A stretch of DNA of 64,000 bases. Source: an uncultured delta proteobacterium. Lineage in GTDB: Bacteria; Desulfobacterota; Desulfobaccia; Desulfobaccales; 0-14-0-80-60-11. The notes under the pieces are model-generated. The model saw only the letters and a program-made list of their open reading frames with translations. It searched no databases and was not told where the DNA came from. A program made the position numbers and the translations under genes. Location of the stretch: the NCBI GenBank assembly GCA_963812015.1, contig CAWETI010000003.1, positions 1,440,001 to 1,504,000 of the forward strand, given 5' to 3'. Positions within the stretch are counted from its first letter, which is position 1. Every line of letters begins with the position of its first letter. Of the stretch, positions 12,711 through 54,621 are shown piece by piece.

Positions 12711-12797
12711 GCCGAAGTGGTGGAACCTGGTAGACACGCCATCTTGAGGGGGTGGTGGGGAATACCCGTGCGGGTTCAAATCCCGCCTTCGGCACCA
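12711..12797 (+). tRNA. tRNA-Leu(GAG)
   Basis: GCCGAAG/CTTCGGC acceptor stem plus ACCA; anticodon arm CCATC-TTGAGGG-GGTGG; long variable arm; GGTTCAAATCC T-arm. Confidence 0.97.
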
Positions 12798-12840
12798 GTT
12801 CTTTAATTAAGGCGTAATCTCAAGAGGTTACGCCTTTGGT
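12777..12840 (+). repeat. attL: 64-bp direct repeat (tRNA 3' end plus terminator)
   Basis: 62 of 64 nt identical to 54558-54621. Confidence 0.95.
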
Positions 12841-12844
12841 TTTG
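12809..12844 (+). terminator. Intrinsic terminator downstream of tRNA-Leu
   Basis: Hairpin AAGGCGTAATCT-CAAG-AGGTTACGCCTT followed by a T-rich tail. Confidence 0.7.
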
Positions 12845-12952
12845 AGGTTCCGCCCCCCTTTGTCACGAATTTGTCACGGTTTTTTGTGGGCTGATGGGGC
12901 ATTTATCGTGATTACTCCACCCGTGACACCCGTGACAACAGTCACGGATTGC

Positions 12953-14134
12953 CTATTCACTCTCACCCCTTACCAGGCTGAAAGTCTGTCCTGGACTGGC
13001 CTTCGGCCCCCGCAAGGTTTTTACCAAGTCTTTTTTCCCTTCCCCCGGGATCCAGTGACCGTAAATATCTACCGTGATCGAGATGGAGCTATGCCCTAAC
13101 TGTTTTTGCACATAGGCGGGCGAGTAGTGGTCCATCAGCAGCATGGAGGCGTAAGTATGCCGGAGATCGTGGGGATTGTGAATCCGGAGCCGGGCGGCCT
13201 TACATCCTTGCTGCATGGCCCGCTGGACCATGCGCTGGGTGATCCCTGGGAAGAGGTAGGGGCTCGGCAACCTGCCATCGGCTAGGCTCTCTTTCCGCAT
13301 CTTTTTGATGTAGACCTCCAGCTTGCCCACCAGGGTTTCATCCAGATCAATCAGCCTTTTGCCACTTTTCGGCGGCCCAAAGCGGCCCGCCCGGGTGGTC
13401 TCAGTCACATAATATTGACCGTTATGAGCGTCCAGGTTCTCCACAGTCATTGCCAAGGCTTCCCCTAAACGCAGACCGGCCATTGCCATCACTTCCAAGA
13501 TCAGGGGATAAGGTTCAAGAAGTTTATCCCAGGCGGCCTTTAGAAAATTTTCCAGGTCTTGCCGGGATAAGGGATCCGGCTCGTTGCGGACCCTCTTTTT
13601 CTTGGAAGGCAGGAGCCGCTTGAGCAGTCCATGAGCCGGGTTAACCTCGGTATAGCCCAACTCGTTGCCTTCGGTGAAAATACCGGAAATCACAGCATGC
13701 ACTACTTCCACGGTTTTTGGCGATCGGATTTTAAGCAGGTCGGCTAGAAGCCGCTTCACCTGGGCCTTATCCACTTGCTCCAGTAGCAGCTTTTCCAGGG
13801 GTCGCAGAAATTCCCGGACAATGCATTCATACCGCTCCTTAGTGCCGGGGCGCCACCGGGCAGCATTGAGTTCATACCATTCTTGGGCCAGCATCCCAAA
13901 GGTCATATCTGTCGCTTCTCTCATAAGAGTCAGGCCCAAACTGGCTGCCAGATTTTCGGCTGCTTTAACCGCCTTCTTAAAATTGTCTTCCCCTTTACCA
14001 ATAGCCTTCTTCTTCCTATGGCTCGCCCTCCTTAAGATTACCTCCCAACTCCCAAATTCATTGAGGCTGACGAAAATCCCTTCTGAAATTTGATAGATGG
14101 GGCCATGCTTGCCTTCCCTCTGCGGGTAACTCAC
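12953..14134 (-). CDS. int: Tyrosine recombinase/integrase
   Basis: Catalytic motifs GLRLGEALAM, KSGKR, HDLRHTYAS, QLGHSSISITVDIYGH; adjacent to attL. Confidence 0.95.
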   Translation of the reverse strand: MSYPQREGKHGPIYQISEGIFVSLNEFGSWEVILRRASHRKKKAIGKGEDNFKKAVKAAENLAASLGLTLMREATDMTFGMLAQEWYELNAARWRPGTKERYECIVREFLRPLEKLLLEQVDKAQVKRLLADLLKIRSPKTVEVVHAVISGIFTEGNELGYTEVNPAHGLLKRLLPSKKKRVRNEPDPLSRQDLENFLKAAWDKLLEPYPLILEVMAMAGLRLGEALAMTVENLDAHNGQYYVTETTRAGRFGPPKSGKRLIDLDETLVGKLEVYIKKMRKESLADGRLPSPYLFPGITQRMVQRAMQQGCKAARLRIHNPHDLRHTYASMLLMDHYSPAYVQKQLGHSSISITVDIYGHWIPGEGKKDLVKTLRGPKASPGQTFSLVRGESE

Positions 14135-14135
14135 T

Positions 14136-14393
14136 CTACACCTCCTTCATAACCTGGTCCCATATGGCATTCAGGTCAGTGGAGGTGCCGTTGCGGAACT
14201 GCTTTACCCAGACATCAAACTCGCTTCTCCTCACCCGGATACAGCGGCCGATCCGGTAATGAGGCATGTTAAAATCATGTAGCCATTTTTTCAAGGTATT
14301 TCTGGAAACAGAAGCATAGACCGCCAATCCCGAAAGAGAAAAGTATTCAGGCGAAAAAGTTGATAAGTTCTTAATGGAGATAAAATCGGTCAT
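14136..14393 (-). CDS. Excisionase-like helix-turn-helix protein
   Basis: 85 aa; YFSLSGLAVYASVSRNTLKKW...MPHYRIGRCIRVRRSEFDVW; directly upstream of int. Confidence 0.85.
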   Translation of the reverse strand: MTDFISIKNLSTFSPEYFSLSGLAVYASVSRNTLKKWLHDFNMPHYRIGRCIRVRRSEFDVWVKQFRNGTSTDLNAIWDQVMKEV

Positions 14394-14545
14394 CTCTTAT
14401 AGTTGCTTATCTAATGCTTCCGGACCATGCCCAAGGGCCACAGAACTGGGGACATTAAGGAAAATCCATTTTCACACCATCGCCCAACCCCAGCTCACAA
14501 ACTGACAATAAATTGCCCGTTTTCTACTGAGCCTCATTTTTCCTT

Positions 14546-17222: not shown

Positions 17223-18458
17223 TTAGGCGCAGACCTCAATCAGCTTCGGCTCAAGGCCCATCTGGGCCAGGCGCTCCAGGGTGACGGCGACGTATTCGGG
17301 GGCGATTTCCATCCCGTAACAAACCCGCCTGAGTTGCTCTGCGGCAACCATTGCCGTGCCAGATCCAAGGAAGGGATCATAAATTATCTCACCCTCCTGG
17401 GAACTGTTTTTGATAGCCCTGGCGATTAACTCCACCGGCTTCATGGTGGGATGAAATTCGGATTTTAGAGGCTTATCCACCTCCCACAATGAATTCTCGC
17501 CGGCGCCTCCATAGAACCTATGCCCCGCCCCCTCCACCCAGACGTAGATAATCGGCTCATGCTTGTAGTTGTAGTCTGAACGTCCCAGGACGTGATTATT
17601 CTTTGCCCAGATCAAGATGTGGTGCAGAGGGAAACCGGAATCTTTAAGTGCCAGGAGGAGGAAGAGGAGGAGATCCCCGCCTTGGGGTCCGGTCACATAA
17701 TAACAGGCCCCCGGCCTGGCGTGGCTGCGTGCAGCCGTGAATGCTGCCCTCCAAAAGGCTGACATTTCCTCCGGGTTTTGATGATCACATGCAATGGGAG
17801 TCTGAATACGGTTGCCTTTGTCAATCGCATTCAGGAACTTATTTTTTGCGGCGTAAGAAACTCCATAAGGGGGATCGGTCACGAGAAGGTCATACTTGTC
17901 ATTATCAAACAATTTGTCAGAGTGAAGGCAATCCTCGCAAGCTACCCGATGCCGCCCCACCCGCCATATCTGCCCTAAAGCCGTACCCCACTTTTCTTGA
18001 AGCTCCCCTGCCTTGTCAATCTCCGGGCCGGGGTCCTCTGGCACAGGCTCGCCGCCGGCGCCTTCCAGCTTTAAAATATCGGTCAACTCATCCAGATCAA
18101 ATCCTGTTAAATCCATATCAAAATTCATTTCCTGCAGCGCTTTGAGTTCGAGTCCTCAAATCTCTGGAAACCATTCAGACTCGGACACCTTGTTATCAGC
18201 AATCCGGGCAGCCCGGGCCTGTTCGGGGCTTAAGTAATCAGCCACCACCACCGGCACGGTCTTGAGGCCCAGCGTTTGGGCCGCCATTAACCGCCCATGG
18301 CCCTTAATGATCACCATATCCGCATCCACTACAATCGGCTGATCCCATTGAAACTCTGCTATCTGGTCGGCCAGCTTTTTGACCTGGCCCTCCGGGTGCG
18401 CCTTAGCATTTTGGGCGTAAGGAGAGATCTTCTCAATCGGGATCTGTTCAATTTTCAT
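17223..18458 (-). pseudogene. ParB-N-terminal / N6-N4 DNA methyltransferase fusion interrupted by an in-frame TGA (18156-18158)
   Basis: ParB part PYAQNAKAH...IIKGHGRLMAA...IADNK reads in frame through EI*GLELKALQEMNFD into an MTase with TDPPY, HPTMKP and DPFLGSGT. Confidence 0.85.
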
Positions 18459-18554
18459 ACAATTTTCCTTTCCCTAAAATTTGCTTGTCGTTAATAACGT
18501 TAATGTGAGCTAACGACATTCGGCGACACCCGAAAAAAATGTCTTGCTTGGAAA

Positions 18555-18603
18555 AGCAGAGCGCCTCCGTACCCTTGTTAAATTTTGCCCCAGGAAGGAC
18601 CCG
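18555..18603 (-). other. Putative lambda-type cos packaging site (cosQ-like GGGTCCT at 18602-18596 plus adjacent cosN-like segment)
   Basis: Minus strand CGGGTCCTTCCTGGGGCAAAATTTAACAAGGGTACGGAGGCGCT, upstream of the MTase-terS-terL block; matches the lambda cosQ heptamer and its position. Confidence 0.6.
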
Positions 18604-18656
18604 CTGAGGCCGCCAACCTTGACCGGCTCCATTTCCACGCCCCACACGCTCTCGCT

Positions 18657-19695: not shown

Positions 19696-19786
19696 TGTAC
19701 CGATGTAGCGCTTTACCCATTATTCTCCCTAGGAAACCTGTGTTTTTGGTTTTAGACTTTTATGGGGGTTTGGGTACATCGGTACA
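19696..19786. repeat. Perfect 12-bp inverted repeat flanking a 67-bp T-rich spacer; candidate replication origin
   Basis: TGTACCGATGTA (19696-19707) and TACATCGGTACA (19775-19786), between the helicase and primase genes. Confidence 0.65.
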
Positions 19787-21557: not shown

Positions 21558-22352
21558 TTAACCAAACGGGGGTAATTTCTCCTCTTTTAATCTCCGCTTG
21601 ATCGTGTCGAGCGAGGTAAAGTGTTTCTTCCCCGGCGCACACACATACTTCTTATCTAATATCTCCTGAATCTGAACTGCCGCTCCATGTTTAGACTTAC
21701 CATTAATCGAAATTAATCTATAAGTTTCTAAGATTCTTCGTTTATTTTCGCCAGTCCCCATCCCCCGCCTTATAGCTTTACACCTCTTTTGCTCATAATC
21801 AAAGTAATTGCCTTCTGCGCATAGGTGTATCATTATTTGACCGCCGATTGCGAATAACTTAAGAGTTGCGATCTCAATTTTAGTTAAAAACGTAATAGAA
21901 ATGGATTTATCTCCTAATATTTCTGGCATAAATTGATAAATATTCCATAATGCCCAGAGATGATCTCGAATCATTACTGGATCAATTGTCGTAGGGTCAT
22001 AATTTGGAGATAGCATTTCCTGATATGATGCGATTAGAAAATCTTCATCATAAAGCAATCGGGCTTTTTGCTCAAGAAGTTGGATTTCTTCGTCAGTGTA
22101 ATCTGCTTCATTTATAGCAATATTCCTCGCGTCATTTGATGAATTGATTTTTGCAAACTTATTTAATTCCATTTCAAAGTTACTATTTTCTTTATACCAA
22201 AATCCTTCCAGAATGCTGGAATAAGCGGTGATAAATTCATCAATTAAGATTAATTTTACTTTCCAAAGTTGACCTAATACGATTTTTCCATCCTCTTCTG
22301 TTTTCTCCGACTGCTGAGAGAAAAAGTGTCTTAATTTTTCATAGTCAAACAT
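21558..22352 (-). CDS. Hypothetical low-GC protein with a possible C-terminal HTH
   Basis: 264 aa AT-rich ORF ending HGAAVQIQEIL...SLDTIKRRLKE; heads the replication block. Confidence 0.65.
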   Translation of the reverse strand: MFDYEKLRHFFSQQSEKTEEDGKIVLGQLWKVKLILIDEFITAYSSILEGFWYKENSNFEMELNKFAKINSSNDARNIAINEADYTDEEIQLLEQKARLLYDEDFLIASYQEMLSPNYDPTTIDPVMIRDHLWALWNIYQFMPEILGDKSISITFLTKIEIATLKLFAIGGQIMIHLCAEGNYFDYEQKRCKAIRRGMGTGENKRRILETYRLISINGKSKHGAAVQIQEILDKKYVCAPGKKHFTSLDTIKRRLKEEKLPPFG

Positions 22353-22544
22353 GACCGCTCCCGTAACGCCCGCTGATGGTTTTGCATGCTGGCAAGTGTC
22401 TGGTGCAGATTGTGAATCCTGATGCGTTCCGCAGCCTGGCTTTTGCCAGGGTCTTATAAAACACCCGCGCCCTGAAGTTCCTGCATTATTTTAATTTACC
22501 ATGAATACCAACTACAATCGACAAAACTGCTCGGCCATCTTGGC

Positions 22545-36930: not shown

Positions 36931-36984
36931 TGACCTGCCCCCAGTAGTTGTACCAAGTTTTAAGTTAGGATGGGGGTCAAGTCA
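36931..36984. mobile_element. 54-bp IS3-family-like remnant (two terminal inverted repeats, no transposase)
   Basis: TGACCTGCCCCCA ... TGGGGGTCAAGTCA with TG..CA ends. Confidence 0.55.
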
Positions 36985-40141: not shown

Positions 40142-40226
40142 GTTGTTTTTACCTCATACAGATTTCAGAACATGTTAAGAAGCTATCTGATAGAGGAGCC
40201 TTGGGTGAAAAGCGGCATTCAAAAAT

Positions 40227-40242
40227 AGCAAGGTACTTGCCA
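40227..40242 (-). promoter_or_regulatory. Sigma-54 (-24/-12) promoter of the methyltransferase gene
   Basis: Minus strand TGGCAAGTACCTTGCT fits GG-N10-GC; part of a 62-bp block repeated at 51193-51254. Confidence 0.65.
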
Positions 40243-40410
40243 GGATCACCAATTATCGCTTAAGTGGGAAAAATTCCAGATATGGAATGAATATGGAAAG
40301 CTTATGGCTCAGTGATAAGTTTCGGATCATAGCAGCTAGTTGGAATTTCTATTCTGAAAAAGATTCCCATAAGGCAGTACTAATTACTAAGAACTGAAAG
40401 GTAAAGGCCT

Positions 40411-43400: not shown

Positions 43401-45087
43401 CTACGGGGTTGTTTTGGAATACCAATTTGTACTTAGTTTCTGAGCTCTGGATACGGGCGGTGGCATCTATGCCCAAGCCGAGGATGGTCAAGAATGCAAT
43501 CACTCCCAAACATACGAACAGGGTGATGCTGATTCCCATGAGCCGGCCCAACATGATAGGGCGCATAGGACTTAGGATCAGCGCGGACCAGTCCTCCCAG
43601 GGTAATGGCTGGCGCAGGGCCAGTTGGGGCGTCCCCTGGAACCGTGCTTCGGCTCGGTCCACCGGTTCTCGGTTCAAAATGGGCGTAAACGGGCCTGGCC
43701 CGAATTGACGGGAGGCCTGCAGTTTCTCCTTGGTCTCCCGGGCCAGGGGCCACAGGCTTTGCAGGACCATTTCCGGCCGGTTGGTCATGATTACAATACC
43801 GTCGGAGTCAATCACAAAACCCGGGGTATCCGCTGGAAAGAACCCCTTCATATCACTGATGGGACGCTTGAAGACCGCAACCCCAACTATCTTTCCGGCG
43901 CGGTCTCGCACCGGGCAACTGGCGTAAAAACCCAGTTCCTTGGAGGTCACCCCCAGGGCCCAATACCTCCCCGGTATTTCCGTAATCGCTTGCTGGAAAT
44001 AGGGCCGGAACTTATAAGACTTACCCACAAAGCTGTCCGGCTGGTGGCGGTTGGAGGAGGCGATGGTCAGGCCGTTGAGGTCCATCAAATAGCAGACCGA
44101 TCCAGGCAAGGCCAGGCTGTAGCGGTCCAGAATCGAGTTGGCTTGCTCAATGGTCTGGGTGTCCCTATGCTCCAAGGCAGGGCGAATCCAGGGTGATCCG
44201 GCCATGGTGTTGGCCAGATTTTCGGCTTCCTCCATTTTATCGGCCATAAACCGGTACAAGATTTTGACATGACTCTCTTGCTTAGTTCTTATATCTTTAA
44301 AGACGGCATCGCCGAAATACTGGGTGGTGAACCAGCCAGCCACCAGTAAGGCGGTCACCGCGACCACGCCTCCGAGCATCAAGGTTTTACTCCACACCCG
44401 AATGCGGCGTCCGGTTTCCTGGGGCAGGGAGACATGGGCCAGGAGAAAGAGGCAGGCGCTTAACCAGAGGGCCAGCAAGCCCTTCACCAACTGGATGGGC
44501 AGGCCGGTCAGCGCCAGGAATGATTCCGAGTTGAGTTGGGCGGCGGGGAAAAAGGGCGCTGGTGTAACCACCAAGTTGGTCAGGGCATAACCAAGCATTC
44601 CCAGGGCCGCACCTTGCAAGGCTCTTCTCCCAGCCCCGGTGACTTTGGAGGCTATGTATAGCGTCCCAGCAGCCCAAAGACCGCCCCCAAATCCCAGAAC
44701 ATAGCGGCTAACCGCAGAAAATCCGGAAAGGCCGGCAAAAAATCCCAATAGGGAAACGCCCAGGAGCGCAGCCAGGATCCAGCGGCCGGGACCGCGGCCT
44801 CGAAGGGTAAAGGTGCCGGCCCGCCCAAATTCCACCAGAAAGACGAAAGAGCCGGTGGCCAGGACCAGCCTTGCCAGGTTAAAGGCGGTGTCACTCCCCA
44901 GACTCAGGGTCAGCAGACCTATCAACTCGTTTACTCCGTGGAAGGCGCCAAACGCGCCCAGCCACACCCAGGCCAACTGCGGCTGGGGTCTCCGCTTCAA
45001 TATCTGGCAGATGGGCGCCAGGAGGATGAATGCCAGCCCATAGAAGAAAAAGATATAATCGATCTGGGATCTGAAAAAGTCAGCCAT
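40411..45087 (-). CDS. Membrane hybrid sensor histidine kinase (TM region, dCache-like domain, multiple PAS, HisKA, HATPase, receiver)
   Basis: FVGKSYKFRPYF; several PAS repeats; AGGIAHDFNNIL; GTGLGLS; LMLTDVVMPRMSG. Confidence 0.93.
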   Translation of the reverse strand: MADFFRSQIDYIFFFYGLAFILLAPICQILKRRPQPQLAWVWLGAFGAFHGVNELIGLLTLSLGSDTAFNLARLVLATGSFVFLVEFGRAGTFTLRGRGPGRWILAALLGVSLLGFFAGLSGFSAVSRYVLGFGGGLWAAGTLYIASKVTGAGRRALQGAALGMLGYALTNLVVTPAPFFPAAQLNSESFLALTGLPIQLVKGLLALWLSACLFLLAHVSLPQETGRRIRVWSKTLMLGGVVAVTALLVAGWFTTQYFGDAVFKDIRTKQESHVKILYRFMADKMEEAENLANTMAGSPWIRPALEHRDTQTIEQANSILDRYSLALPGSVCYLMDLNGLTIASSNRHQPDSFVGKSYKFRPYFQQAITEIPGRYWALGVTSKELGFYASCPVRDRAGKIVGVAVFKRPISDMKGFFPADTPGFVIDSDGIVIMTNRPEMVLQSLWPLARETKEKLQASRQFGPGPFTPILNREPVDRAEARFQGTPQLALRQPLPWEDWSALILSPMRPIMLGRLMGISITLFVCLGVIAFLTILGLGIDATARIQSSETKYKLVFQNNPVGIFHFDETGTLADCNDKFAEIIGAPKEKIIGFNLLRQLQNKRIRETILTSMKGQCGFYEGDYLSVLGGNLTSVRAIFQGIFSPDNEFLGGVGIFEDFTLRRQALEALRESEEKFRLVFEKAPLGIMHYDQTSTITNCNEKYAEIIGAPKEKFIGFNMMRQLRDDKMREAVAASLKGEEGYYEGDYLSVTAGKTTPVRAIFQPIFSTDGALSGGVAIFEDISQRKRAEELLAKNHNELQDFAHRLEQSRDMLQLIIESIPVRVFWKDNDLRYMGCNTLFAHDAGFSNPQQLLGKDDFAMGWKEQADPYRRDDRQVMESRRSKINIVEPQTTPAGDKIWLKTSKVPLIQPSGEVVGVLGVYEDITEHKQAEEALLASEERYRMVADYTYDMEYWVASDGKILYMSPASERLTGYSFQAFQEDPQLLFQILHPEDQALFVNHMEEVRSLDEPRNLDFRLIHRNGQEFWVNHSCQPVFGTDGQPLGRRASNRDFTERKEAEEAFQSLVNHAPMGIYIIQHGKFAMINPGVEAITGYTAQDLLGQNCLISVSPGYRAFVREQAIQRLKGEGLSPYEYQFTNKSGEAGWVMETVTPTQYKGQRAVLGYFMDITPLKKLEAQFLQAQKMEAVGRLAGGIAHDFNNILGVIIGYTEIMLMGLKENDPLCGYLGEIKRAAVRAASLTRQLLAFSRRQIQQLEIINLNEVVTDLEKMLERVIGEDLELVLKLDSALPSMKADKGQIEQIILNLAVNAKDAMPQGGKLTIETCDVYLDETYCRDHPYVSPGHFVMMTVSDNGTGMDEETRAHIFEPFYTTKEIGKGTGLGLSTVFGIVKQSGGSIEVYSEAGVGTTLKVYLPSVEEPAEKPQAESHANPLPGHETILVVEDDDGLRPLIMDVLKMHGYEVLEARDGDEALRICKDHEGPIHLMLTDVVMPRMSGRQLADQMASLYPQMRVLFMSGYTDNAIVHHGILQEDTAFIQKPFSPDDLARKVSELLATSFPK

Positions 45088-45661
45088 ATCTGGCTACTCC
45101 TTTTCCTGATAAGCGGGTCTAAATAATCTCTTTATCCCAATCCTCAGCCTCGAAACTAAACCCATCTCAGTGAACTGAGATTACGCGGCAGCCTTAGCTG
45201 CGTTTCTCACAAATTGATGCGTTAAACCTGTTTCCCCGATTTCCAATCTATCAAACACTTTTTCCCAAGGCAACAATCTCTTGTAAGCATCATAGCACAA
45301 AAATATTTAAGGAATCGGTTTTCCATTTAAAGTGCGGGCACACTAGTGACCATTACTGTCGCTGTATCGGCGCTGTGCGGACTAAAAAACCCCAAGTCGG
45401 CATCTCCCGTCAATGGGGAACTATTGAAACAGCTGAGTCTAATTTAGGAAGGAATTATTGAAACCAGGGGATAGAGAACCAAAGCCTTGAGGAGAGAAGC
45501 TGAAGCAGGTTTTGACCGAAAATTAAAGATAACATGGTGATTCTGCAAGCTTTTATTGCTATCCTTGGCACAAGCGGTTATCAATGCTCATTTATTCATC
45601 TGAGCTTGCTGGAATATTCGTGTCTCATAAGCGCCTAAATAATTTGAGGACAAATAACTCA

Positions 45662-46786
45662 TTAATTAGCCACAACTGCCTGATTACCCTCGAATTTAAA
45701 ATCCTTTTCGGTAAATAGTCTTATGCAGGCATCCACAATTTCTCCATCATAAAGGACACCTTTGTTTTGATAGATCTCTTTCAAGGCCACACTCAAACCC
45801 AAGGCAGGTCGGTATGGTCGGTGGGAATTCATGGCTTCCATTACATCGGCCACGCCGATTATCTTCGCCTCTAAAAGGATTTCCTGGTCGACAAGACCGT
45901 GTGGATACCCCGAGCCATTTAGCCTTTCGTGATGTTGGAGAACCATTCCGGCAATAGGCCAGGGGAAATCAATACATTTAAGGATATCGTAACCGATCTC
46001 AGAATGAAGCCTGATCAGTCCCATCTCTGCTTCATGCAGTTTTCCTGGCTTGGACAGCACATCTGAGGGGACTCCTATCTTTCCAATATCGTGGACGAAT
46101 GCGGCTAATCGCAACCCTTCAATTCTTTCCACTGGCAGCCTAATTTCTTGGGCTATTCCACAGGCAAGGTGCCCCACTCGCTGTTGGTGTCCTGCGGTGT
46201 AAGGGTCTCTTTTCTCCAGGGTTGAAACAAGTGCCCCTACCGTGTTTTCAAGCAGTCCTTTGACCCTCATAAGAGTCTGATGGAGTTGGCATAGAATGTT
46301 TTTCTCTCGTATGATCCGGAAAATCTTGGCGTTTAATTCACCCATAGAAAAAGGCTTGGCAATAAAGTCAGAGGCTCCAGCATTAATGATATCTTCATAG
46401 GAATATTCTGGAGCATAACCTGTCATAATAATGAATGGCATATAAGGATGTTTTTGGTGAACCTGTTGCATCAGTTCTATCCCATCCTTTCCCCTCATTT
46501 TAATGTCACTAATTACCAAATCAATACTCTCTTGATCGAGGATTTCCAAAGCCTTAAATGCATTCGTCGCTGTCGTATGTGAAAACCTCCTCATCTGCAG
46601 ATAGTCTTTAAGAAGTCTTACGAAAGCCTCATCGTCCTCTACTACCAAGATAGATGCCGCTGCCACAACTAACTCCCCATTGCACAGGCAAGCATTTTCT
46701 GTTTTACCTGAAGTGGAAAGCAGCTTTATTTGAGCATTCAGAGATGATAGATCTTTGGCAATTTCTTGTGCATTTATCTGGGGCAT
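45662..46786 (-). CDS. Response regulator with HD-GYP cyclic-di-GMP phosphodiesterase domain
   Basis: Receiver (ILVVEDD, SDIKM, FIAKPF); RDPYTAGHQQRV, HDIGK, HHERLNGSGYP. Confidence 0.93.
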   Translation of the reverse strand: MPQINAQEIAKDLSSLNAQIKLLSTSGKTENACLCNGELVVAAASILVVEDDEAFVRLLKDYLQMRRFSHTTATNAFKALEILDQESIDLVISDIKMRGKDGIELMQQVHQKHPYMPFIIMTGYAPEYSYEDIINAGASDFIAKPFSMGELNAKIFRIIREKNILCQLHQTLMRVKGLLENTVGALVSTLEKRDPYTAGHQQRVGHLACGIAQEIRLPVERIEGLRLAAFVHDIGKIGVPSDVLSKPGKLHEAEMGLIRLHSEIGYDILKCIDFPWPIAGMVLQHHERLNGSGYPHGLVDQEILLEAKIIGVADVMEAMNSHRPYRPALGLSVALKEIYQNKGVLYDGEIVDACIRLFTEKDFKFEGNQAVVAN

Positions 46787-47433
46787 CGATTGGTCCTCCT
46801 ACTAAGCAGCAACTATTAAATTGTGATGATACAATCGATATTATAAATTTAGAATAATATGTTCTTCGGATTCGAGTTATATCTGAATGTTTTCGACTGT
46901 ACTAAGATAACTGAATTTAGCTTGTCATTCCAATTTATGTTATTTAATGATTAATTTACTTAAGCTATTTCCATATTGGTAATTTTTGTTATAAAGATAT
47001 CTCTGGATTACAATTATTCGCCTGATAAACTATAAAAATCATAATATATGGCTTTCTTTTTACAATCAGTGATAACCCTAAATTTAAAGTTCGAAAATCC
47101 TGGTTTATAGTGTGAATAGTTAAGGATAGGATGATTAAGTAATCTTCTGGGGTAGCTTCCTGCGTTATTGTCTGATTTTTTAGAAGCAATACCTGAAAAG
47201 CCCTATTAGTGGGGATATATATAAATCATCGATTCTCGAGCGTGGGATGATGATCTTGGGGCTTATTTTAAAAAAATCTTTAGTTTAAAAATCACTAAGA
47301 AAGGTGTCCAGCACCGAATGAAAGAATCGTTAACTGCCATTTATTGGCAATATGATCTCAATTTGTGGGGTGGCTTTTTTAGTTCAGGAAAATATCAGGT
47401 GCCTACAATAAAAGAAGGGGAGAATATCGATAT

Positions 47434-48696
47434 CTATTCAGGGATTTCATTACCAGGAAAGCTGTGTGCATGTTCTGCGTAATTTAATTTAGTAACATTA
47501 TTTACATTATCTATTTGAACAGAGTCCAACACTTCCCGTATTTTTACTACAAGCGTTATGAGAGAGAAGGGCTTCTGGATAAATGCCGCAGTCTTATCTA
47601 AAGCTAAATGGTGGACAACAATGTCTTCCATATGGCCGGACATGTAAATCACCTCCATTTGGGGATTCAAAGGTAATAAACATTCGGCCAAGTGTCCCCC
47701 CCCCATCTGGGGCATCACTACATCCGTCAACATCAAATGGATCAGTCCCTGGTGTTGCTTACAAATCCGCAGGGCCTCTTCGCCGCAGCGGGCACTCAGC
47801 ACCGTATATCCATACTCTACAAGGGCATCACTTATTAGCTCTCGCAGTTTATCCTCATCTTCCACCACCAGAACTGTTTCTGAGCCTCGTAGCTGGTCAG
47901 ATTCAGCAATTTGTAGCGACCTACAAGCCTTTTTAGCCCTGGTTTTCACCGTGGGGAAGAATATTTTAAAGGTAGTTCCTTGTCCTGGTTCGCTATATAC
48001 TTCAATAAAGCCACCATTCTGTTTGACGATCTCATGGGTGGCGGAGAGGCCAATACCGGGCCCCTTCCCAGTTTCTTCGGTGCTAAAAAATGGTTCAAAA
48101 ATATGGGCACGGGCCTTTTTATCCATACCCCTGCCGGTATCGCTCACTATCAGCATAGCGTAGGCACCGGATGAGACGTCAAGGTGCCTGGATAGATAGG
48201 ATTTGTTTAGAGAAACATTAGCAGTTTCAATACTTAGTCGACCTCCTTGAGGCATGGCATTCCGTGCGTTGACCGCTAAATTCATCAGGACCTGTTCCAA
48301 TTGGCCGGGATCTATTGTTACGATTATCGCGTCCGGACCAAGATTCAGGACCAGTTCGATATCTTCCCCAATGAGACGGTGCAGCATTTTATCTATTTCA
48401 ATGACAATACTATTCAAATCGACTTCCCGAGGTTGGGTTCTCTGCCGGTGGCTTAAAGTTAGCAATTGACGGGTCAAGAAAACGGCTTGTTCCGCAGCTT
48501 CTTTAATCCCTTTGACATGAGGGTGGAATTTATCATCTGGACTCATTTCCTTCATCATGATAGCCAGATGCAATATGATAATCCCCAGCATATTACTGAA
48601 GTCGTGGGCCAACCCTCCTGCTAACCTCCCCACCGCTTCCATTTTCTGGGCCTCGAGGAATTGGTCCTGAAGTTGCTCTCGTTCATTGTTGTCCAT
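47434..48696 (-). CDS. Cytoplasmic hybrid histidine kinase/response regulator lacking a sensor domain
   Basis: Begins just before EAQKMEAVGRLAGGLAHDFSN; HATPase and receiver domains follow. Confidence 0.85.
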   Translation of the reverse strand: MDNNEREQLQDQFLEAQKMEAVGRLAGGLAHDFSNMLGIIILHLAIMMKEMSPDDKFHPHVKGIKEAAEQAVFLTRQLLTLSHRQRTQPREVDLNSIVIEIDKMLHRLIGEDIELVLNLGPDAIIVTIDPGQLEQVLMNLAVNARNAMPQGGRLSIETANVSLNKSYLSRHLDVSSGAYAMLIVSDTGRGMDKKARAHIFEPFFSTEETGKGPGIGLSATHEIVKQNGGFIEVYSEPGQGTTFKIFFPTVKTRAKKACRSLQIAESDQLRGSETVLVVEDEDKLRELISDALVEYGYTVLSARCGEEALRICKQHQGLIHLMLTDVVMPQMGGGHLAECLLPLNPQMEVIYMSGHMEDIVVHHLALDKTAAFIQKPFSLITLVVKIREVLDSVQIDNVNNVTKLNYAEHAHSFPGNEIPE

Positions 48697-48801
48697 AAGT
48701 TATCCCAAAGGGGAACTCGGTTCGGTGCGCTGGACTCAATTTCAAAGTCTAAACTGTAAGAAACCCTCTACTAACATGCAAGCCTTCCTTGAGAAGTTGC
48801 T

Positions 48802-49119
48802 CTAATCTTCCGGAGCGACCCAGGAAATATTTGTTTTATTGATGATAAATACTTTGCTATCCTGCCATTCTGCAGTAGCGTCGAACACCACTATAAAGGG
48901 GTTTCGACCAAATGTAAATAGATCGCTCACTCTTTGATAAAAAATTCCCATCTCATTATTATGCTTATCTATCATCTCAATTTCTTGGGTAGATTCGCAG
49001 AGTAAATTAATTTTACCCCTTACAATGGCCCCATCCATTAGTTTTATGGTCACATGTCTGTGCTCAATTTGCTTATAAAACATATTATGAACATTATTTT
49101 GTCCCCGAACGTTGATCAT
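48802..49119 (-). CDS. Hypothetical protein (DUF6812-like)
   Basis: GAIVRGKINL...RVSDLF...PFIVVFDA...IINKTNISWV; AAGGAGG ribosome-binding site. Confidence 0.65.
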   Translation of the reverse strand: MINVRGQNNVHNMFYKQIEHRHVTIKLMDGAIVRGKINLLCESTQEIEMIDKHNNEMGIFYQRVSDLFTFGRNPFIVVFDATAEWQDSKVFIINKTNISWVAPED

Positions 49120-49754
49120 AATATCGCCTCCTTACGATATATGTTAAATTGAACATTCTTGTTTATTCTTAATAAAGGTTAATTGGTGTAGATAAATTTT
49201 GTTGATAAACTTCTTTGATAGAATTTATTCATTCAATTAATGGACCAACCCGGTTGACTTGGGTAATTCATTTAGTTCCATAATTTTTAACCTTTGATAC
49301 GGATTATAATGGTGCCCCGTCAAAAGCGCCATAGGGAAATCCACTGATTTTTGGGGAAGAAAAATACTGGTTAATAAAGGGGTGGATAGATGATTATTTT
49401 TTTGAATTCGGCTTAATTGGATTTACCGGTCATGGTTTTTCCCCAGCAATCTGTAATCGAAAACTACTTTATGCCGCAAAAATAGGCACGTTTAACTTGC
49501 CAAACCCGGCAATTATCCCCAAACCCGGAAAAGTTGAAGATATGATCCGCATAGTGAAGGAGGTTTGCCTGATCACGTTTTGACGACCATAGATCATCAA
49601 CCGCTTGGGTCCCTGCCCATTGGCATCACTGTCTCAGGTCACTGGCCGGTGCCGGTAGCGGTGCTATTATTTCTTTAATCGTTTTTTGCGGAGAACCACC
49701 ATCTCCTTGAGGTTTCGGTTGGCAAATTTTTAAACGAAAGCATTTATCCGTGCT

Positions 49755-50903
49755 TTAGCCTTCCTGCCGTATGACTGCAACGCGAATCTGCTGCACCGCG
49801 ATCAACGAAACCACGCTCATCGCAGCCCCGGCAACAAAGGGAATGCGGTAGTCCACCATCCACAACAACCCGCCGATGGCTGGAAGAAACACTGCGGCAA
49901 TGTGGTTGATGGTGAAGCCCATTGCCATGCTGGGAGCAATGTCCCGGGGGTCCGCCACCTTCTGGAAGAAGGTCTGGATGGCAATGGCAAAATTGAAAAA
50001 AACATGATCCAAGATGAACAGAATCGACAGGACAAGTTTGGATTGTACCAGGGCGTAGGCCAGGAAGATAAAGAATAGGCTGAAATATTCCAATGACAGC
50101 ACTTTCCGTTCGCCAAAGCGCAGGATGCTTTTCCCGATTATTGGGCTCAGGAAATAATTGATCAGGTCATTAATCACAAACAGGATGGTTATGTGCTGAA
50201 GGGTGAAATGGCACCTTTTCACCAGCAGGAATACTGCAAAGGCCATAAAAATCTGGCGGCGTGCGCCGCCCATAAAGGTGAGGAAATAAAAGAGCCAATA
50301 CTTCTTGCGAAAAATCATCTTTTTGTGCTGGGGGATAATATCGCGGTGGGTTGGATCGTGCAGCAGGCCCCAGATGCTGGCTGCGACGATGGCACCTCCG
50401 ATAATCAAATAGATTTGGGTGTAATTCAATAGAGCCGCCAGGCAGTAAATCAAAATCCCAATAACCACGCTGGAAGCCGAGGCCAGACTGCGCATTTTGC
50501 CAAACACCCAGGGTGATTGGGTGGCGTCAAAATATTGCAGGGTCAACGACTGATTCGTGGTCTCGTAATAGTGAAAGCCGAAACTCATGATGAGCGTGGT
50601 GAGAATGAGGCCCAGGTAGGAAGGGAACCAGCCGGTTACCGCCAGCCCCAGCCCCAGGAAGAGAATAGACAGGGCGGACAGGCGATGTTCCTTGATCACC
50701 AGCATGATAAAAACCGCCAGCAGGGCCAGGAAACCTGGAATTTCCCGTATGGACTGGATCATGCCGATGTGGCTGCCATCCAAATGCGCCACATCTACGG
50801 CAAAATTATTGAAGAGGGTAAGCCAGGCTTTCAGGCCAACCGTCGAGCTGATGGTAAGCACCATCAGGAAACGAAACATGGCATTTTGGTTAGTTTGTGG
50901 CAC
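49755..50903 (-). CDS. MFS transporter (start approximate)
   Basis: LFNNFAVD, SIREIPGFLA, GARRQIFMAFAVFLLV, GFTINHIAAV; about 12 TM segments. Confidence 0.85.
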   Translation of the reverse strand: MPQTNQNAMFRFLMVLTISSTVGLKAWLTLFNNFAVDVAHLDGSHIGMIQSIREIPGFLALLAVFIMLVIKEHRLSALSILFLGLGLAVTGWFPSYLGLILTTLIMSFGFHYYETTNQSLTLQYFDATQSPWVFGKMRSLASASSVVIGILIYCLAALLNYTQIYLIIGGAIVAASIWGLLHDPTHRDIIPQHKKMIFRKKYWLFYFLTFMGGARRQIFMAFAVFLLVKRCHFTLQHITILFVINDLINYFLSPIIGKSILRFGERKVLSLEYFSLFFIFLAYALVQSKLVLSILFILDHVFFNFAIAIQTFFQKVADPRDIAPSMAMGFTINHIAAVFLPAIGGLLWMVDYRIPFVAGAAMSVVSLIAVQQIRVAVIRQEG

Positions 50904-51196
50904 TGAGGATTGTTCCGAAATTATGCGGCCGTCCTGGCCCCATAGTCCAAAAATAGTTTTGGGGACCTCCTTGGTTCGATGCCCCCCGCAAAAGGTATCA
51001 TCCTTTGAGCTGCCTCTCTCATGGACGGCATGGTACCACCAATTTCGCTGAAAAGTAATTCCTTGATGAATGTTGGCATACCACACCCTTAGAACCCGGA
51101 CAGCTCGGTGTCATGGAGCTTAAAGACCCCAAGCACTGGCTGCGGCGACACGTGCATACCACTATTTTTGGGAATAGGGATTAACGATAAGGAAAT

Positions 51197-51212
51197 AGCA
51201 AGTTACTTGCCA
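51197..51212 (-). promoter_or_regulatory. Sigma-54 (-24/-12) promoter upstream of the MFS gene
   Basis: Minus strand TGGCAAGTAACTTGCT fits GG-N10-GC. Confidence 0.6.
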
Positions 51213-51324
51213 CGATCGACAATTATCGTCGGACCGGAAAAAATTCCAGATATGATCTGATTATCTGAATCCCTTCCTTTGTCCTGAAGTTGGGTAATTT
51301 CTTCTTTTCATTTAAACTAAATCC

Positions 51325-52368
51325 ATGTCCCAGCCCCCCAAGACTGATCTGGAATCTTTCCATTTCCGGAATCTGCATCATAAGGTCTTAATCGGAACGG
51401 CCAGTGATCGTTATGCCGGTTGGATTGGACAAATTTATTCCCAGGACCGCTATGCTGGACGAATAACCAAACGCACCAAAATCGTGGCCTTAAAATCTTT
51501 CACGGAAGAAGTGCTCCCAGTCGACAGCGTGGAGGAGTACTTCGAACATTTCCCGGTCTTGGAAATTGATTTCATTTTTTACCGGCCGCTTTTAGACCAA
51601 AACGGCCAACCCAACCAGAACTACCAGGTATTGAAGACCTACGCCAGGCACCTAAAAAAGGGTGACCGGATAATTCTCAAAGTTCCACAAATGATCATGG
51701 CCCAAAAAATTCGGAAAGGTGACTATTATGTGGCAAACCCAGCCTATCTCAACCCCAAAATGTTTACGGAACAATTCTATGAACCAGCCATCAATCTCCT
51801 GGGCGCCAATCTCACTGGCTTCATTTTTGAACAGGAATATCAACGTAAGGAGGATCGGTTGCCTGTGGTCAAGATGGCCTATGGTCTGAATATATTTTTC
51901 AGCCAAGTTCCCACAGATTCCAGGTATCATCTGGAATTAAGAACAGACCTATATCTCCGGGACCAGGTTTTTGAGGTATTGGCCAAATATGGAGTTGGGC
52001 AAGTCTTATCTCACTGGACTTGGTTGCCGCCCTTGAGAAAACAGCTGGCCAAAGCTGACGGCAGATTTTTCAATGCCGGGAATGAATGTGTTATCCGGCT
52101 AATGACACCCTTGGGAATGAGGTATGAAGACGCTTATGCAAAAGCCCATCCTTTTGATAGGCTGGTGGAAGGTATGCTGCAGCCGGAGATGGTTTTTGAG
52201 ACTGTGGAAATGGTCAAAAGTGCCATTGAGAAAGGGATGATGGTCAATCTCATTATCAATAATCGGGCGGGGGGCAATGCACCTATGATTGCGGAGATTA
52301 TTTCAGAGAAACTTTTCCCCAAACCCACGCCAAAATCTAAGGGCCAAATGAGTCTGTGGGATTCCTGA
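51325..52368 (+). CDS. DUF72 (YecE-like) domain protein
   Basis: IGTASDRYAGW, YFEHFPVLEIDFIFY, LKVPQ, HLELR, IINNRAGGNAP. Confidence 0.82.
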   Translation: MSQPPKTDLESFHFRNLHHKVLIGTASDRYAGWIGQIYSQDRYAGRITKRTKIVALKSFTEEVLPVDSVEEYFEHFPVLEIDFIFYRPLLDQNGQPNQNYQVLKTYARHLKKGDRIILKVPQMIMAQKIRKGDYYVANPAYLNPKMFTEQFYEPAINLLGANLTGFIFEQEYQRKEDRLPVVKMAYGLNIFFSQVPTDSRYHLELRTDLYLRDQVFEVLAKYGVGQVLSHWTWLPPLRKQLAKADGRFFNAGNECVIRLMTPLGMRYEDAYAKAHPFDRLVEGMLQPEMVFETVEMVKSAIEKGMMVNLIINNRAGGNAPMIAEIISEKLFPKPTPKSKGQMSLWDS

Positions 52369-52785
52369 TTAAAAATATCGGTACAAGAATCAAAGTGATT
52401 TCCCATTCCTGGTATAAATTATTAAACTAAAACAGCTGAACGATGCAGGAGGATGGAATAATTATCAGGGGATATCATGAGGTTATATTTATAGGGTGGC
52501 TTGGTATGATTAGTGCATAATAATATTGCAGACATGAACTGTTAAGGAAACCCCCAATCCCCCCTTAAAAGTTCACATACCATTTTCTCCTTAGCTGGCC
52601 GGGACTCCCCCTCTCGGCCAGTTTGTTTTTCTACTGAGTCATTCCAGTCTAAAGATTTTGACCTTTCAGCAGCCGCCATTGACACCCCAATCGCACCTAT
52701 GCAAGATTGCCGTTCTTCCATTGCAAACCAGGGCGAAATGTAGTATGGGTGTGGACCACATGACGATACAAAGGAGATGATTCTT

Positions 52786-53076
52786 ATGGCCAGTGAAAAT
52801 CTTAAATTAACTGCCCAAATTGTCATGTCCCACGCATCAATGAGAAAGCTAACGCCACAGGAATTGGTTACGGTGATTAAAAGGTTATATGCTACCTTAG
52901 CTTCATTAGAAGCTGAAGATGTCGTTCCAGAACCAAAACCCAAAGTGATCCGCCAACGCAAGCCTCGAAAAGTTAAAATTAAAGGAACGCCGGAAGCCAA
53001 AGCGGTTGAGAATGAGGAAGGATTGACTGTTGGAGATCCGGATTATATGGAGTTTATGGAAAGCCGAGAGGGGTAA
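52786..53076 (+). CDS. MucR/Ros N-terminal-domain-only protein (no zinc finger)
   Basis: LKLTAQIVMSHASMRKLTPQELVTVIKRLYATL aligns with the N-terminus of the adjacent MucR; no CxxC; AAGGAG ribosome-binding site. Confidence 0.72.
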   Translation: MASENLKLTAQIVMSHASMRKLTPQELVTVIKRLYATLASLEAEDVVPEPKPKVIRQRKPRKVKIKGTPEAKAVENEEGLTVGDPDYMEFMESREG

Positions 53077-53147
53077 CCGAACCAAGTTGGAGAACAACGC
53101 ATTCTGGCGCAATTCCCTTACAATCAAACCCAAAGGAGATAATACCC

Positions 53148-53588
53148 ATGCCCAGCGAAGTTCTAAAAATGACCACAGAGATTGTCGTTTCCCATGCCTC
53201 GTTAACCGAACTTACCACCGAGCAATTGGTTAGCGAGATTAAAGATGTCTACAATGTCCTTTCTGTTTTGGAAGGCGGGCAAATTTTGGAGGAACCGCTT
53301 TCTGGAAAAGCTGGAGAAACTGGTGGTGTGAAAAAGCCATCTATTCCTTTGAAAGACATCGTTAAGGCCAAGTATGTGGTTTGTCTTGAATGCGGGAAAA
53401 AACTGAAAACTTTAAAGACCCACCTGCAGAAAGCTCATGGGTTGATGCCGAAAGAGTATTATAAGCGGTTTGACCTGGATCCCAAGAAGTTCCCTCTGGT
53501 GTGTAAAGAATATTCAGCGGCTCGGAGCAAGATGGCGAAAGACCGGGGGTTGGGTGCGAAGGGAGGTAGGCGTAAGGCGACTACTTAA
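53148..53588 (+). CDS. mucR: MucR/Ros family zinc-finger transcriptional regulator
   Basis: VVCLECGKKLKTLKTHLQKAHGLMPKEYYKRF...PLVCKEYSAARSKMAKDRGLG. Confidence 0.92.
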   Translation: MPSEVLKMTTEIVVSHASLTELTTEQLVSEIKDVYNVLSVLEGGQILEEPLSGKAGETGGVKKPSIPLKDIVKAKYVVCLECGKKLKTLKTHLQKAHGLMPKEYYKRFDLDPKKFPLVCKEYSAARSKMAKDRGLGAKGGRRKATT

Positions 53589-53676
53589 GTAAGTTGAAGC
53601 CCTCACAAAGACCTCCCAAACCATTGAAGAGAAATTGACCAGGGTTAAGAACCCAACAAAAGCCGAGGAGAAAGCT

Positions 53677-53766
53677 ATGGGAGACAAAGGTAAGAAGGAC
53701 AAGGCCAAGAAGGGCAAGAAAGACAAACAGAAGGTAGATAAAAAAGACAAGGATAGCAAGAAGTAG
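53677..53766 (+). CDS. 29-aa Lys/Asp-rich peptide (MGDKGKKDKAKKGKKDKQKVDKKDKDSKK)
   Basis: GAGGAG ribosome-binding site 6 nt before the ATG; co-oriented between mucR and csrA; too short for the ORF track. Confidence 0.55.
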   Translation: MGDKGKKDKAKKGKKDKQKVDKKDKDSKK

Positions 53767-53811
53767 CAGGTCAACCCAATTGAGGGGCGGCCCCGCCGTA
53801 GGAGAGCCACC

Positions 53812-53973
53812 ATGTTAATTTTGACCTTGAAGGAGGACGAAAAAATTCTCATTGGGGACAAGATAACTGTCAAGGTGGTGGAGATCCGGGGAAAACAAAT
53901 CCGCCTTGGGATCGAGGCGCCGGCTGGCCTTTTGGTTCTGCGGGAAAATCTGGCGGGAAAAGCAAAGGCATAA
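53812..53973 (+). CDS. csrA: Carbon storage regulator CsrA/RsmA homologue (53 aa)
   Basis: Hand translation MLILTLKEDEKILIGDKITVKVVEIRGKQIRLGIEAPAGLLVLRENLAGKAKA; AGGAG ribosome-binding site; absent from the ORF track. Confidence 0.88.
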   Translation: MLILTLKEDEKILIGDKITVKVVEIRGKQIRLGIEAPAGLLVLRENLAGKAKA

Positions 53974-54557
53974 AGGAGCACAGGACGGTGGGTCAAGGCG
54001 AAACTCCTGGTGCCCCACCAGGCCGCTGGCCCTTGTCCCTCCCACGCAACAGCCCATCCCCAGCCCGACCCTCCTATCTGATTACCCAATCTGGTATAGG
54101 TTATCGCTTGCGGGATAACTTACCTTAATAACCCTTTAATGCCCCATTGAAGATAGCTTGCCACTATCCGCTCTTCTGGGAATCTTTGCATATGATTCGT
54201 ATATGGAAATCTCTTAAGATGAAAAAGCCCCGGGTGGAATCCCCAGGGCTCCAATTGCACTTTTGTTCGATTCAAACACTCTCTACTTTGGAGCTCAAAC
54301 CTTCAAAAATACATGGCGAAATTTTCGCCTTTTTATGTCAACTCGCCAAGGGGCCTTCTGTCCAAGCCCTTGAAATTATTAGGCATGTAGATGCAAGTTT
54401 TTACCTGAAATAGTCCCGTTGGGACTACTTGATAATGTAATCCAAGGGGGAGAGGATCTATTCTCTGAAATGCCCCAGAAAATTCCCCAATAGCTCATTT
54501 TGACCATACCGCCGGGCCGCTGTACCCGGAAAAGTGAGGAATCATGCGGGTTTTAGG

Positions 54558-54621
54558 CAAATCCCGCCTTCGGCACCAGTTCTTTAATTAAGGCGTAACC
54601 TCAAGGGGTTACGCCTTTGGT
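54558..54621 (+). repeat. attR: duplicated tRNA-Leu 3' end plus terminator
   Basis: CAAATCCCGCCTTCGGCACCAGTTCTTTAATTAAGGCGTAACCTCAAGGGGTTACGCCTTTGGT. Confidence 0.95.

Follow-up and report, generated by a model that had tools for sequence, protein, structure and literature searches.

A portal-less, att-bounded island with its own cos-like site, TerS and TerL: a candidate PICI-like satellite in a Desulfobaccales-related host

Introduction

To our knowledge, described phage satellites either depend on the TerL of a helper (PICIs, P4, VEIMEs, tycheposons, and EPIPs) or carry a TerL together with a capsid of their own (cf-PICIs). The gap between the TerL-borrowing satellites and the cf-PICIs is filled by an element that has TerS, TerL, and cos yet lacks a shell. 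The 41,781-bp att-bounded island analyzed here, located at tRNA-Leu(GAG) in a Desulfobaccales-related sediment bacterium, has this composition.

Gram-negative cos-type PICIs (EcCICFT073 type, with Rpp), in the portions of the literature drawn on here, share with the island a tRNA integrase, a primase-helicase, TerS, a lambda-like cos, defence cargo, and the lack of tail and holin genes (PMC10085698, PMC9026076). Judged against the same portions, the island differs in its full TerL, in the position of xis-int downstream of terL with all genes co-oriented, and in having no detectable Rpp or capsid-morphogenesis gene; its integrase-to-helicase span of 8.4 kb is near the PICI median of 9.5 kb, whereas its att-to-att length of 41.8 kb is not (PMC10085698, PMC9026076). 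Of the features in the SatelliteFinder PICI model, the integrase, primase-replicase, and TerS are present and portal, tail, and holin genes are absent, as expected; at odds with the model are the missing capsid-morphogenesis gene and an intact TerL of the island's own in place of the helper's, terL being listed, in the section cited, as cf-PICI specific (PMC10085698). The cf-PICIs outlined there likewise combine a PICI-like backbone with a TerS and a TerL of their own, but the island has none of their capsid, portal, protease, head-tail connector, and adaptor genes (PMC10085698). P4-like satellites, with a psu-delta-sid operon and no terminase, are the opposite of the island on both counts: neither Pfam nor PHROGs matched that operon in the island.

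According to the excerpted report on phiAH14b of Pseudomonas sp. ANT_H14, that element resembles the island in its split primase and helicase and its lack of structural genes, and it is packaged in unmodified helper heads, as proposed below for the island (PMC4936722). Unlike the island, phiAH14b has no terminase identified in that excerpt, according to which a 16.8-kb unit is packaged by the headful mechanism, probably as trimers (PMC4936722). PICI-like tycheposons, VEIMEs, and EPIPs, in the accounts sampled, are also integrative and carry replication genes, some with TerS; in contrast to the island, they have TerS only, with TerL expected from the helper. Finally, uncultured lambda-head phages with TerLs 55 to 71% identical to that of the island (for example, a prophage in G015 and loci L014, L018, and L046) share its cos motif, TerS, GpA-type TerL, and C-terminal tail motif. 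These phages also possess the portal, protease, capsid, and tail genes that, together with lysis genes, the island lacks and, where the upstream region is seen, mostly encode a fused primase-helicase of 750 to 880 aa rather than the island's split pair. They are the likely donors and helpers of the island.

Results

Anatomy of the island. Throughout, "the window" denotes the whole 64,000-nucleotide stretch of DNA that was analyzed. The island is delimited by two 64-nt att copies, 97% identical and spaced 41,781 bp apart, the left one overlapping the 3' end of tRNA-Leu(GAG) (Table 1); the window contains no third exact copy of the att core. The att pair and the co-oriented gene block agree with the first-pass annotation of this DNA, as does the gap between terL and xis, put there at about 150 bp and measured here at 152 bp. 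The inverted repeat in the candidate origin is of a length found in 1 of 2,000 shuffles, and loci G073, G010, and G012 have inverted repeats of different sequence at the same place. The cos-like site is common to the island and its phage relatives. Hyp matched no Pfam or PADLOC family and gave a single weak PHROG match, and its Atlas neighbours are unnamed. Just upstream of hyp lies a remnant (~100 bp) of a second integrase, which had escaped earlier annotation. Beyond it, several of the host-like cargo genes have paralogues of 77 to 99.6% identity elsewhere in the same genome.

Table 1. Features of the island and its integration site (positions in the window)
Feature	Position	Strand	Remarks
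tRNA-Leu(GAG), integration target	12711..12797	+	Island integrase family also at tRNA-Leu in other genomes of the class
att repeat, tRNA side	12777..12840	+	tRNA 3' end plus 43-bp extension containing a hairpin
Tyrosine integrase (int), 393 aa, open frame	12953..14134	-	Pfam/PHROG matches
Excisionase-like HTH_17 protein (xis), 85 aa	14136..14393	-	Pfam/PHROG matches
terL-xis spacer, 152 bp	14394..14545	-	Homologous to L013 spacer, 71% identity
GpA-type TerL, 639 aa	14546..16465	-	Both Pfam domains present
TerS, Nu1-like with N-terminal extension, 246 aa	16481..17221	-	PHROG terS (phrog_57), E 1e-17
ParB-N6/N4 DNA methyltransferase fusion	17223..18458	-	In-frame stop at codon 101
cos-like site	18500..18605	-	cosQ-like motif at 18602, then conserved cosN-like core
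Zn-ribbon/TOPRIM primase, 340 aa	18657..19679	-	Pfam/PHROG matches
Replication-origin (iteron) candidate, between helicase and primase	19696..19786	.	12-bp perfect inverted repeat
D5/SF3 helicase, 513 aa	19787..21328	-	Pfam/PHROG matches
Conserved hypothetical (hyp), 264 aa, low GC	21558..22352	-	End of conserved module
Frameshifted C-terminal remnant of second tyrosine integrase	22384..22481	-	74% over 98 bp to L024 integrase
Defence cargo: Dcm-like C5 methylase, Vsr, MzaB, MzaC, MzaD, MzaE(AIPR)	22545..32272	-	
Short XerC-like recombinase, 196 aa	32623..33213	-	82% to copy elsewhere in genome
Host-like cargo: aminotransferase, MlaC, DUF2092, kinases, regulators, MFS, DUF72, MucR, CsrA	33438..54557	.	
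att repeat, distal copy	54558..54621	+	

Structural genes and signs of decay. Pfam and PHROG profile scans of the 38 island ORFs returned no match to a head, tail, or lysis gene, and a six-frame tblastn search with 268 proteins encoded downstream of terL in relatives recovered no structural remnant in the island, which bears out the earlier claim that such genes are missing. The host genome has no lambda-type portal, and the analysis turned up no helper. Regulator searches (Pfam and PHROGs, general profiles) returned the HTH_17 xis-like gene only, with no AlpA or Stl family match.

The ParB-methyltransferase gene is present, as annotated before, but it is not intact: an in-frame TGA interrupts it at codon 101, while the gene is uninterrupted in a relative. 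Since codon 101 falls outside the coverage of the best-matching run, the stop could be an assembly error. Other members of the wider family carry lesions as well, including a stop in the L013 integrase, frameshifted C-termini in 2 of the 15 TerL cluster members listed, and fragments in 8 of the 15 clade-B TerL members listed. Phage-family remnants occur in G030, G041, G073, and L059; in the G073 remnant, cos and the module of hyp, helicase, and primase are linked to a head protease, a tape measure, and a piece of tail J, so phages with this replication backbone probably existed. With its methylase stop and host-like accretions, the copy in the window may be ageing.

TerL phylogeny and portal linkage. 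A portal lies 0.5 to 3.4 kb downstream of terL in 25 of 37 loci of relatives at 55 to 71% TerL identity. The window TerL groups apart from these portal-linked relatives with about 21 sequences of 84 to 94% identity (clade A; FastTree support 0.998, rising to 1.0 with its sister group of 77 to 82% identity), among which no portal-linked member was found. For three clade-A members the context was available as DNA; the others are indirect, being cases in which a portal or integrase was sought on a contig of the same size as the TerL contig. By this measure a portal accompanied 0 of 12 clade-A, 0 of 13 clade-B, and 26 of 67 control TerLs, in a comparison that covered the top 120 of the 332 portal clusters together with the members of 10 clusters and that misses known portal-linked controls. 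The family integrase shared a contig size with TerL in two further clade-A cases and one clade-B case. A single origin of clades A and B found no support: the two are separate in the whole-protein tree and in both domain trees.

Clade A was absent from two IMG/VR scans, the first of which yielded 24 loci of more distant relatives; IMG/VR scans with the primase, the helicase, and a 26-nt cos stretch returned nothing, and the integrase gave one partial match. Among 401 genomes sampled across the phylum Desulfobacterota, 19 had a TerL match, clade A being represented by the island's own genome only. All matches in isolated phages and plasmids fell below 60% identity, the best at about 31%.

Recurrence of the junction and selection. 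A synteny search, proposed with the first-pass annotation, recovered the terL-xis-int layout in two other samples, L013 and run X2. In run X2 the junction is bridged by a contig and matches span 12769 to 22352; its long contigs, 92 to 95% identical to the window, match up to the start of hyp, so that the conserved module stops where the cargo starts. Among the runs with small shares, X2, X3, and X8 were used. Alignment of the terL-xis spacers of the window and L013 scored 141, versus 1 to 51 for 23 control post-terL stretches. The spacer distance of 0.37 and the xis dS of 0.30 between these copies imply that the junction shares its history with terL. An origin of the junction through homology between a phage post-terL HTH gene and xis found no support, the similarity being just 29% over 38 aa.

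Between the same two portal-less copies, terL shows a dN of 0.059 and a dS of 0.48, a dN/dS of 0.12 (CI, 0.08 to 0.19) that is as strict as in phage-phage controls (0.09 to 0.28). For terS, dN/dS is 0.15 (window versus G009), and terL, terS, ParB-MTase, xis, and int are all under purifying selection. The window TerL retains its ATPase and nuclease motifs and the C-terminal tail motif.

Excision. The assembled contigs showed neither an attP junction nor a molecule ending at cos; their depth is not a copy number. A run X1 contig with a loose end at 12777, matching the sequence before the distal att, is explained by the integrated form and was not taken as a sign of excision. In a search for an empty attB, the left and right flanks were adjacent in none of 69 family genomes; the right-flank genes are multicopy.

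Discussion

The cassette clearly derives from a phage. The replication and xis-int genes are common to the island and to terminase-less islands of the same class (57 to 69% identity for xis against those at tRNA-Leu), so the whole looks like a PICI-like backbone joined to a phage cos-terminase cassette. The recurrent layout and the conserved TerL point to a probable phage parasite that uses borrowed shells, and with modest confidence we favor a satellite that uses helper proheads to package itself and has kept its captured cassette working. A PICI-like Desulfobaccales island would have captured cos-ParB/MTase-terS-terL from a local lambda-head phage family. Xis and Int would excise the 41.8-kb unit, the helicase and primase would start its replication at the iteron site and yield concatemers, and its own TerS would bind its own cos. 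Its own TerL would then cut the DNA and use its conserved C-terminal tail to dock on a helper prohead at the portal, the helper being a co-infecting phage of the cassette's family that would supply proheads, tails, and lysis. With both subunits on board, the element would have no need to recruit the helper's TerL, unlike PICIs with Rpp or TerS only. The lack of a capsid-size gene implies that normal-size heads would be filled, which would favor cargo such as the Mza system.

The main rival is a decayed prophage or prophage-island chimera that lost its head, tail, and lysis genes, the deletion having brought terL next to the xis-int of an adjacent tRNA-Leu island; such a locus would be inherited mostly vertically and gather host DNA, and its selection signal would date back to its time as a phage or reflect recombination with intact phages. 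We regard this as unlikely, though several observations speak for it: the broken methylase, the second-integrase remnant, cargo with 91 to 99% identical copies elsewhere in the chromosome, the phage-family remnants at four loci, a GC content of 60.5% in terS-terL versus 51.4% in xis-int, and the portal that follows terL in most of the relatives' loci. Against it stand the strict dN/dS over a dS of 0.48 between two junction-sharing copies, the at least 11 full-length TerLs among the 15 clade-A members listed, the conserved module that ends where cargo begins, and the diversity of integrases found with clade-A TerLs (65, 77, 79, and 93% identity), which implies continued mobility. Decayed prophages, according to the excerpt cited, lose terminase genes preferentially (PMC7744054). 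Decayed copies are common. Yet the three observations that the first-pass annotation named as refuting its reading were not made: the closest TerL homologues (84 to 94% identity) were not seen beside a portal, terL is under purifying selection between portal-less copies, and the profile scans detected neither capsid nor portal in the island.

It is improbable, in our estimation, that clade A consists of complete temperate phages with xis-int-attP between terL and portal and with head and tail genes at the other prophage end, replaced by cargo here. Such phages would account for the selection on terL, for 32 kb of cargo where head and tail genes would lie, and for two members on phage-sized contigs of 36.9 and 39.2 kb; yet the 12 clade-A contigs have no same-size portal contig, at most 9 members fall in any of the best 120 of 332 portal clusters, the IMG/VR scans did not find the clade, and the island holds no structural remnant. 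We give equally little credence to a terminase kept for another use, either blocking the packaging of related invading phages (competing TerS/TerL, decoy cos) or packaging in situ so as to transduce the island end and neighbouring chromosome. The defence genes and the conservation of both subunits and cos fit such a role, and satellite proteins that block helper packaging, such as Rpp, are described in the cited portion of PMC9026076; but the catalytic motifs are intact, not dominant-negative, and replication and excision genes are conserved alongside, as self-transfer predicts.

If the island is a satellite, the "new satellite class" proposed in the first-pass annotation is better described as a variant of PICI-like satellites. 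More tentatively, there may be a family with a whole cos-terminase motor and no shell, using unmodified helper heads, a helper-sized monomer, and ~32 kb of exchangeable cargo, whose TerL was acquired from the helper phages on at least two occasions (giving clades A and B, which share an integrase family), perhaps as a fit to different portals. Current tools would class such elements as prophage debris. If packaged at full helper size, they could account for the spread, among sulfate-reducer-related bacteria, of 30- to 40-kb defence and regulatory islands that have no conjugation genes. They also offer a testable case of prophage-to-satellite transition and natural pairs for studies of TerL-portal specificity. 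A single element size, 41,781 bp, underlies both the head-size fit and the clustering at 40 to 50 kb that the first-pass annotation proposed to check; L024 is another portal-less, terminase-bearing, att-bounded element, of 16.3 kb.

The island and its integration site

The feature is real. The att pair proposed in the first-pass annotation stands, as 64-bp repeats, 97% identical and 41,781 bp apart, that start inside the 3' end of a tRNA-Leu(GAG) gene. So does the minus-strand gene order, which runs from a conserved hypothetical gene (hyp) through D5 helicase, primase, ParB-MTase, terS and GpA-type terL (639 aa) to xis and int, a gap of 152 bp separating terL from xis; the ParB-MTase, however, is not intact. 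An in-frame stop interrupts it at codon 101, a position outside the coverage of sequencing run X1, and the copy in the related genome G009 is intact. A frameshifted fragment of a second integrase lies directly before hyp. The hairpin extension in both att copies (see the table) may be what a previous, related element left behind at the site.

The island had been described as devoid of head, tail and lysis genes, and Pfam and PHROGs found none of these families among its 38 ORFs. A six-frame search of the island with 268 proteins encoded after terL in relatives (portals, proteases, capsids, and tail proteins among them) revealed no structural trace. In the host genome (99.9% complete), neither a lambda-type portal nor a PF05065 capsid was found; its Mu-like head genes, which lie elsewhere, are not a cos-type helper.

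The cos-like motif matches lambda's right-end sequence 30 bases ahead of the junction, known as cosQ. Those phage relatives for which upstream sequence is available also have it upstream of terS, and identity between the window and G009 begins abruptly at it. Because the 10-base motif by itself occurs eight times in the genome, the candidate cos is argued from its position and from the conserved core that follows it. A candidate replication origin lies between helicase and primase, where a 12-bp inverted repeat without mismatches (1/2000 shuffles) is found; inverted repeats of different sequence occupy the same position in three other genomes (G073, G010, and G012).

Coordinates of features in the window, the host genome, and related loci
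Feature	Location	Remarks
att copies	window 12798-12840, 54579-54621	coordinates of the 43 bp past tRNA end in each, hairpin included
Inverted repeat pair, 45 bp	window 51012-51056, 54836-54880	82%; either side of distal att copy
cos-like motif	window 18602	
Run X2 contig matches	window 12769-22352	long contigs 92-95%
C5 methylase, Vsr, then MzaB-C-D-E	window 22545-32272	
Cargo copied elsewhere in genome	window 34596-36075, 37814-39458, 48785-49486	91%, 99%, 91%
Dispersed repeat family	window around 36930-37270, 40230-40350	
Repeat, 300 bp	window 6082-6381, 36208-36507	94%
Mu-like I protease, gpT capsid	L147:6118-8639; G000 C3:484-487 kb	host genome
Complete phage relatives	L008:15800-16000	terL often followed by 66-aa HTH_17 gene, small unknown gene, then portal
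att-bounded element	L024:4862-21203	16.3 kb, at tRNA-Phe
cos-terS-terL	L010:1947-5400 (G041)	adjoining tRNA-His
Clade-B module	L109:952-4519	ParB and Mom-family genes in slot of window's ParB-methylase
PICI-like island of G012	L093:1898-8352	at tRNA-Ala
G073 locus	L090:3500-18600	int-hyp-xis-helicase-primase-cos-terS piece-S49 protease-tape measure-tail J piece

Related terminases and their neighborhoods

A portal lies 0.5-3.4 kb downstream of terL in 25 of 37 related loci, some of which are one phage from several samples; nine stop too early to judge, and three have no portal: L011, whose terL has an internal deletion, L024, and L013. The GpA nuclease family occurs in 5/83 genomes of the class and the lambda portal family in 2/83; what G068 contains is a 3' piece that probably represents locus L059 again, and the two were counted once.

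The window's TerL belongs to a cluster of 19 members, plus two further at 92%. Its clade A (84-94% identity) has support of 0.998, or 1.0 when joined by a 77-82% sister group. Whether the closest homologues sit beside a portal had been the question, and our tree, which combines the window's TerL with 30 TerLs from the loci and the top protein matches (from P0032-P0107, P0066 only), places no portal-linked sequence inside clade A. Neither the catalytic motifs nor the motif of the C-terminal tail has been lost; in lambda, according to PMC9026076, this tail docks on the portal.

The predicted synteny recurs. In L013, terL (91%) is followed by xis, int and tRNA-Leu(GAG) in window-like order, the integrase being interrupted by a stop; one run X2 contig joins xis to the terL end, and another diverges past the hyp start. 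TerL and an integrase of the family are paired by identical contig size at 335,401 and 9,740 bp in two further clade-A cases, and at 28,428 bp in clade B, which comprises the P0007 cluster, L109 and L059 and is distinct in all three trees. A portal on a contig of identical size accompanies 26/67 control TerLs versus 0/12 in clade A and 0/13 in clade B, by an indirect test that covers the best 120 of 332 portal clusters and overlooks known positives. Members of 10 larger portal clusters gave no clade A or B match either. Two scans of IMG/VR returned no clade-A member, and near relatives may be absent from the searched set.

L109 runs helicase, cos, ParB, Mom, terS (59%), terL; the stretch between cos and terS is a swappable DNA-modification slot. 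The TerLs P0124 and P0007, of distant clades, have near-identical C-terminal tails, pointing to recombination at the terL 3' end. The L024 element, whose TerL is in neither clade, carries primase-helicase, cos, terS, terL, a tape-measure-like gene and int, with no portal or capsid matches. The G041 TerL has a shortened nuclease domain that continues without a frame break into ParB and PAPS-reductase domains, for a total of 879 aa.

Selection and competing readings

Relaxed selection on terL did not emerge: window and L013 (332 codons) differ by dN 0.059 and dS 0.48, a ratio of 0.12 (CI 0.08-0.19), and phage-phage control pairs give 0.09-0.28. Their terL-xis spacers are homologous (71%, distance 0.37; score 141 versus 1-51 in 23 controls), and dS is 0.30 for xis versus 1.64 for int; terL, spacer and xis thus share a common history, and the integrase was exchanged. 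Against G009, for which the upstream side is known, the ratio is 0.15 for terS and 0.09 for ParB-MTase.

Beside this observed anatomy, recurrence and selection, the most likely reading, which we hold with slightly better than even confidence and whose whole cycle we infer, is a satellite that packages itself in helper proheads. The element would excise and replicate by its own replication genes, its TerS-TerL would cut its own cos, the terminase would dock onto proheads of a helper, and the helper would supply tails and lysis. A decayed chimera, which the interrupted ParB-MTase would suit and the constrained terL would not, is doubtful. The L059 terL, which stands next to a different xis, an integrase of 25% identity and tRNA-Glu, is 5'-truncated and frameshifted; a piece of it still gives 0.13 against L109, so a low pairwise ratio is no proof that a given copy still works. 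Complete phages with att placed between terL and portal would account for the selection on terL and sit poorly with the 0/12 portal pairing of clade A; we consider them improbable. An interference or transduction role of the terminase, compatible with its conservation, seems to us just as improbable beside the conserved replication and excision genes.

Relation to known satellites

A satellite of this kind would work as proposed for cos PICIs. As PMC10085698 describes them, PICIs differ from the island, which has its own TerL and no capsid-morphogenesis gene, and cf-PICIs have head genes, none of which the island carries. In the satellite phiAH14b of Pseudomonas sp. ANT_H14, no terminase was identified, and its DNA goes into unmodified heads (PMC4936722). 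Descriptions of VEIMEs, tycheposons and EPIPs mention TerS only, whereas the island has TerS and TerL. Defective prophages are possible proto-satellites, according to a review (PMC11389934). Our search, largely of literature outside subscription journals and supplements, found no published capsid-less satellite with both terminase subunits. To these the island adds a cos motor of the lambda type and a unit of helper size, and it allows selection to be tested over a shared junction.

Mosaic origin and cargo

Other class members carry the xis-int pair at tRNA-Leu genes in a terminase-free vicinity, G010 and G020 have the helicase-primase pair in islands without packaging genes, and most portal-linked phages have a fused primase-helicase; with a GC content of 60.5% for terS-terL versus 51.4% for xis-int, these mark the element as a mosaic. 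G012 has the same helicase-primase pair and a single HK97-type capsid gene. The G073 locus, which is missing terL, portal and capsid and whose tape measure is 33% identical to that of L024, is a remnant or a different, tape-measure-bearing satellite type; its arrangement means that the packaging cassette may have arrived with the replication genes from a single phage, against a clean split.

No MzaA match was found among the scanned proteins. The cargo beyond the Mza, methylase and Vsr genes is host-like, and because stretches of it are 91-99% identical at other chromosomal places, the sequence suggests accretion in place. Lambda packages 38-51 kb. The island's 41.8 kb fits the 35-43 kb of 10/26 portal-matched TerL contigs (sizes of contigs, not verified genomes), one size being no pattern and L024 being 16.3 kb. 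The 300-bp repeat reflects the similarity of the island's mlaC to another mlaC on the chromosome, 6 kb beyond the att site.
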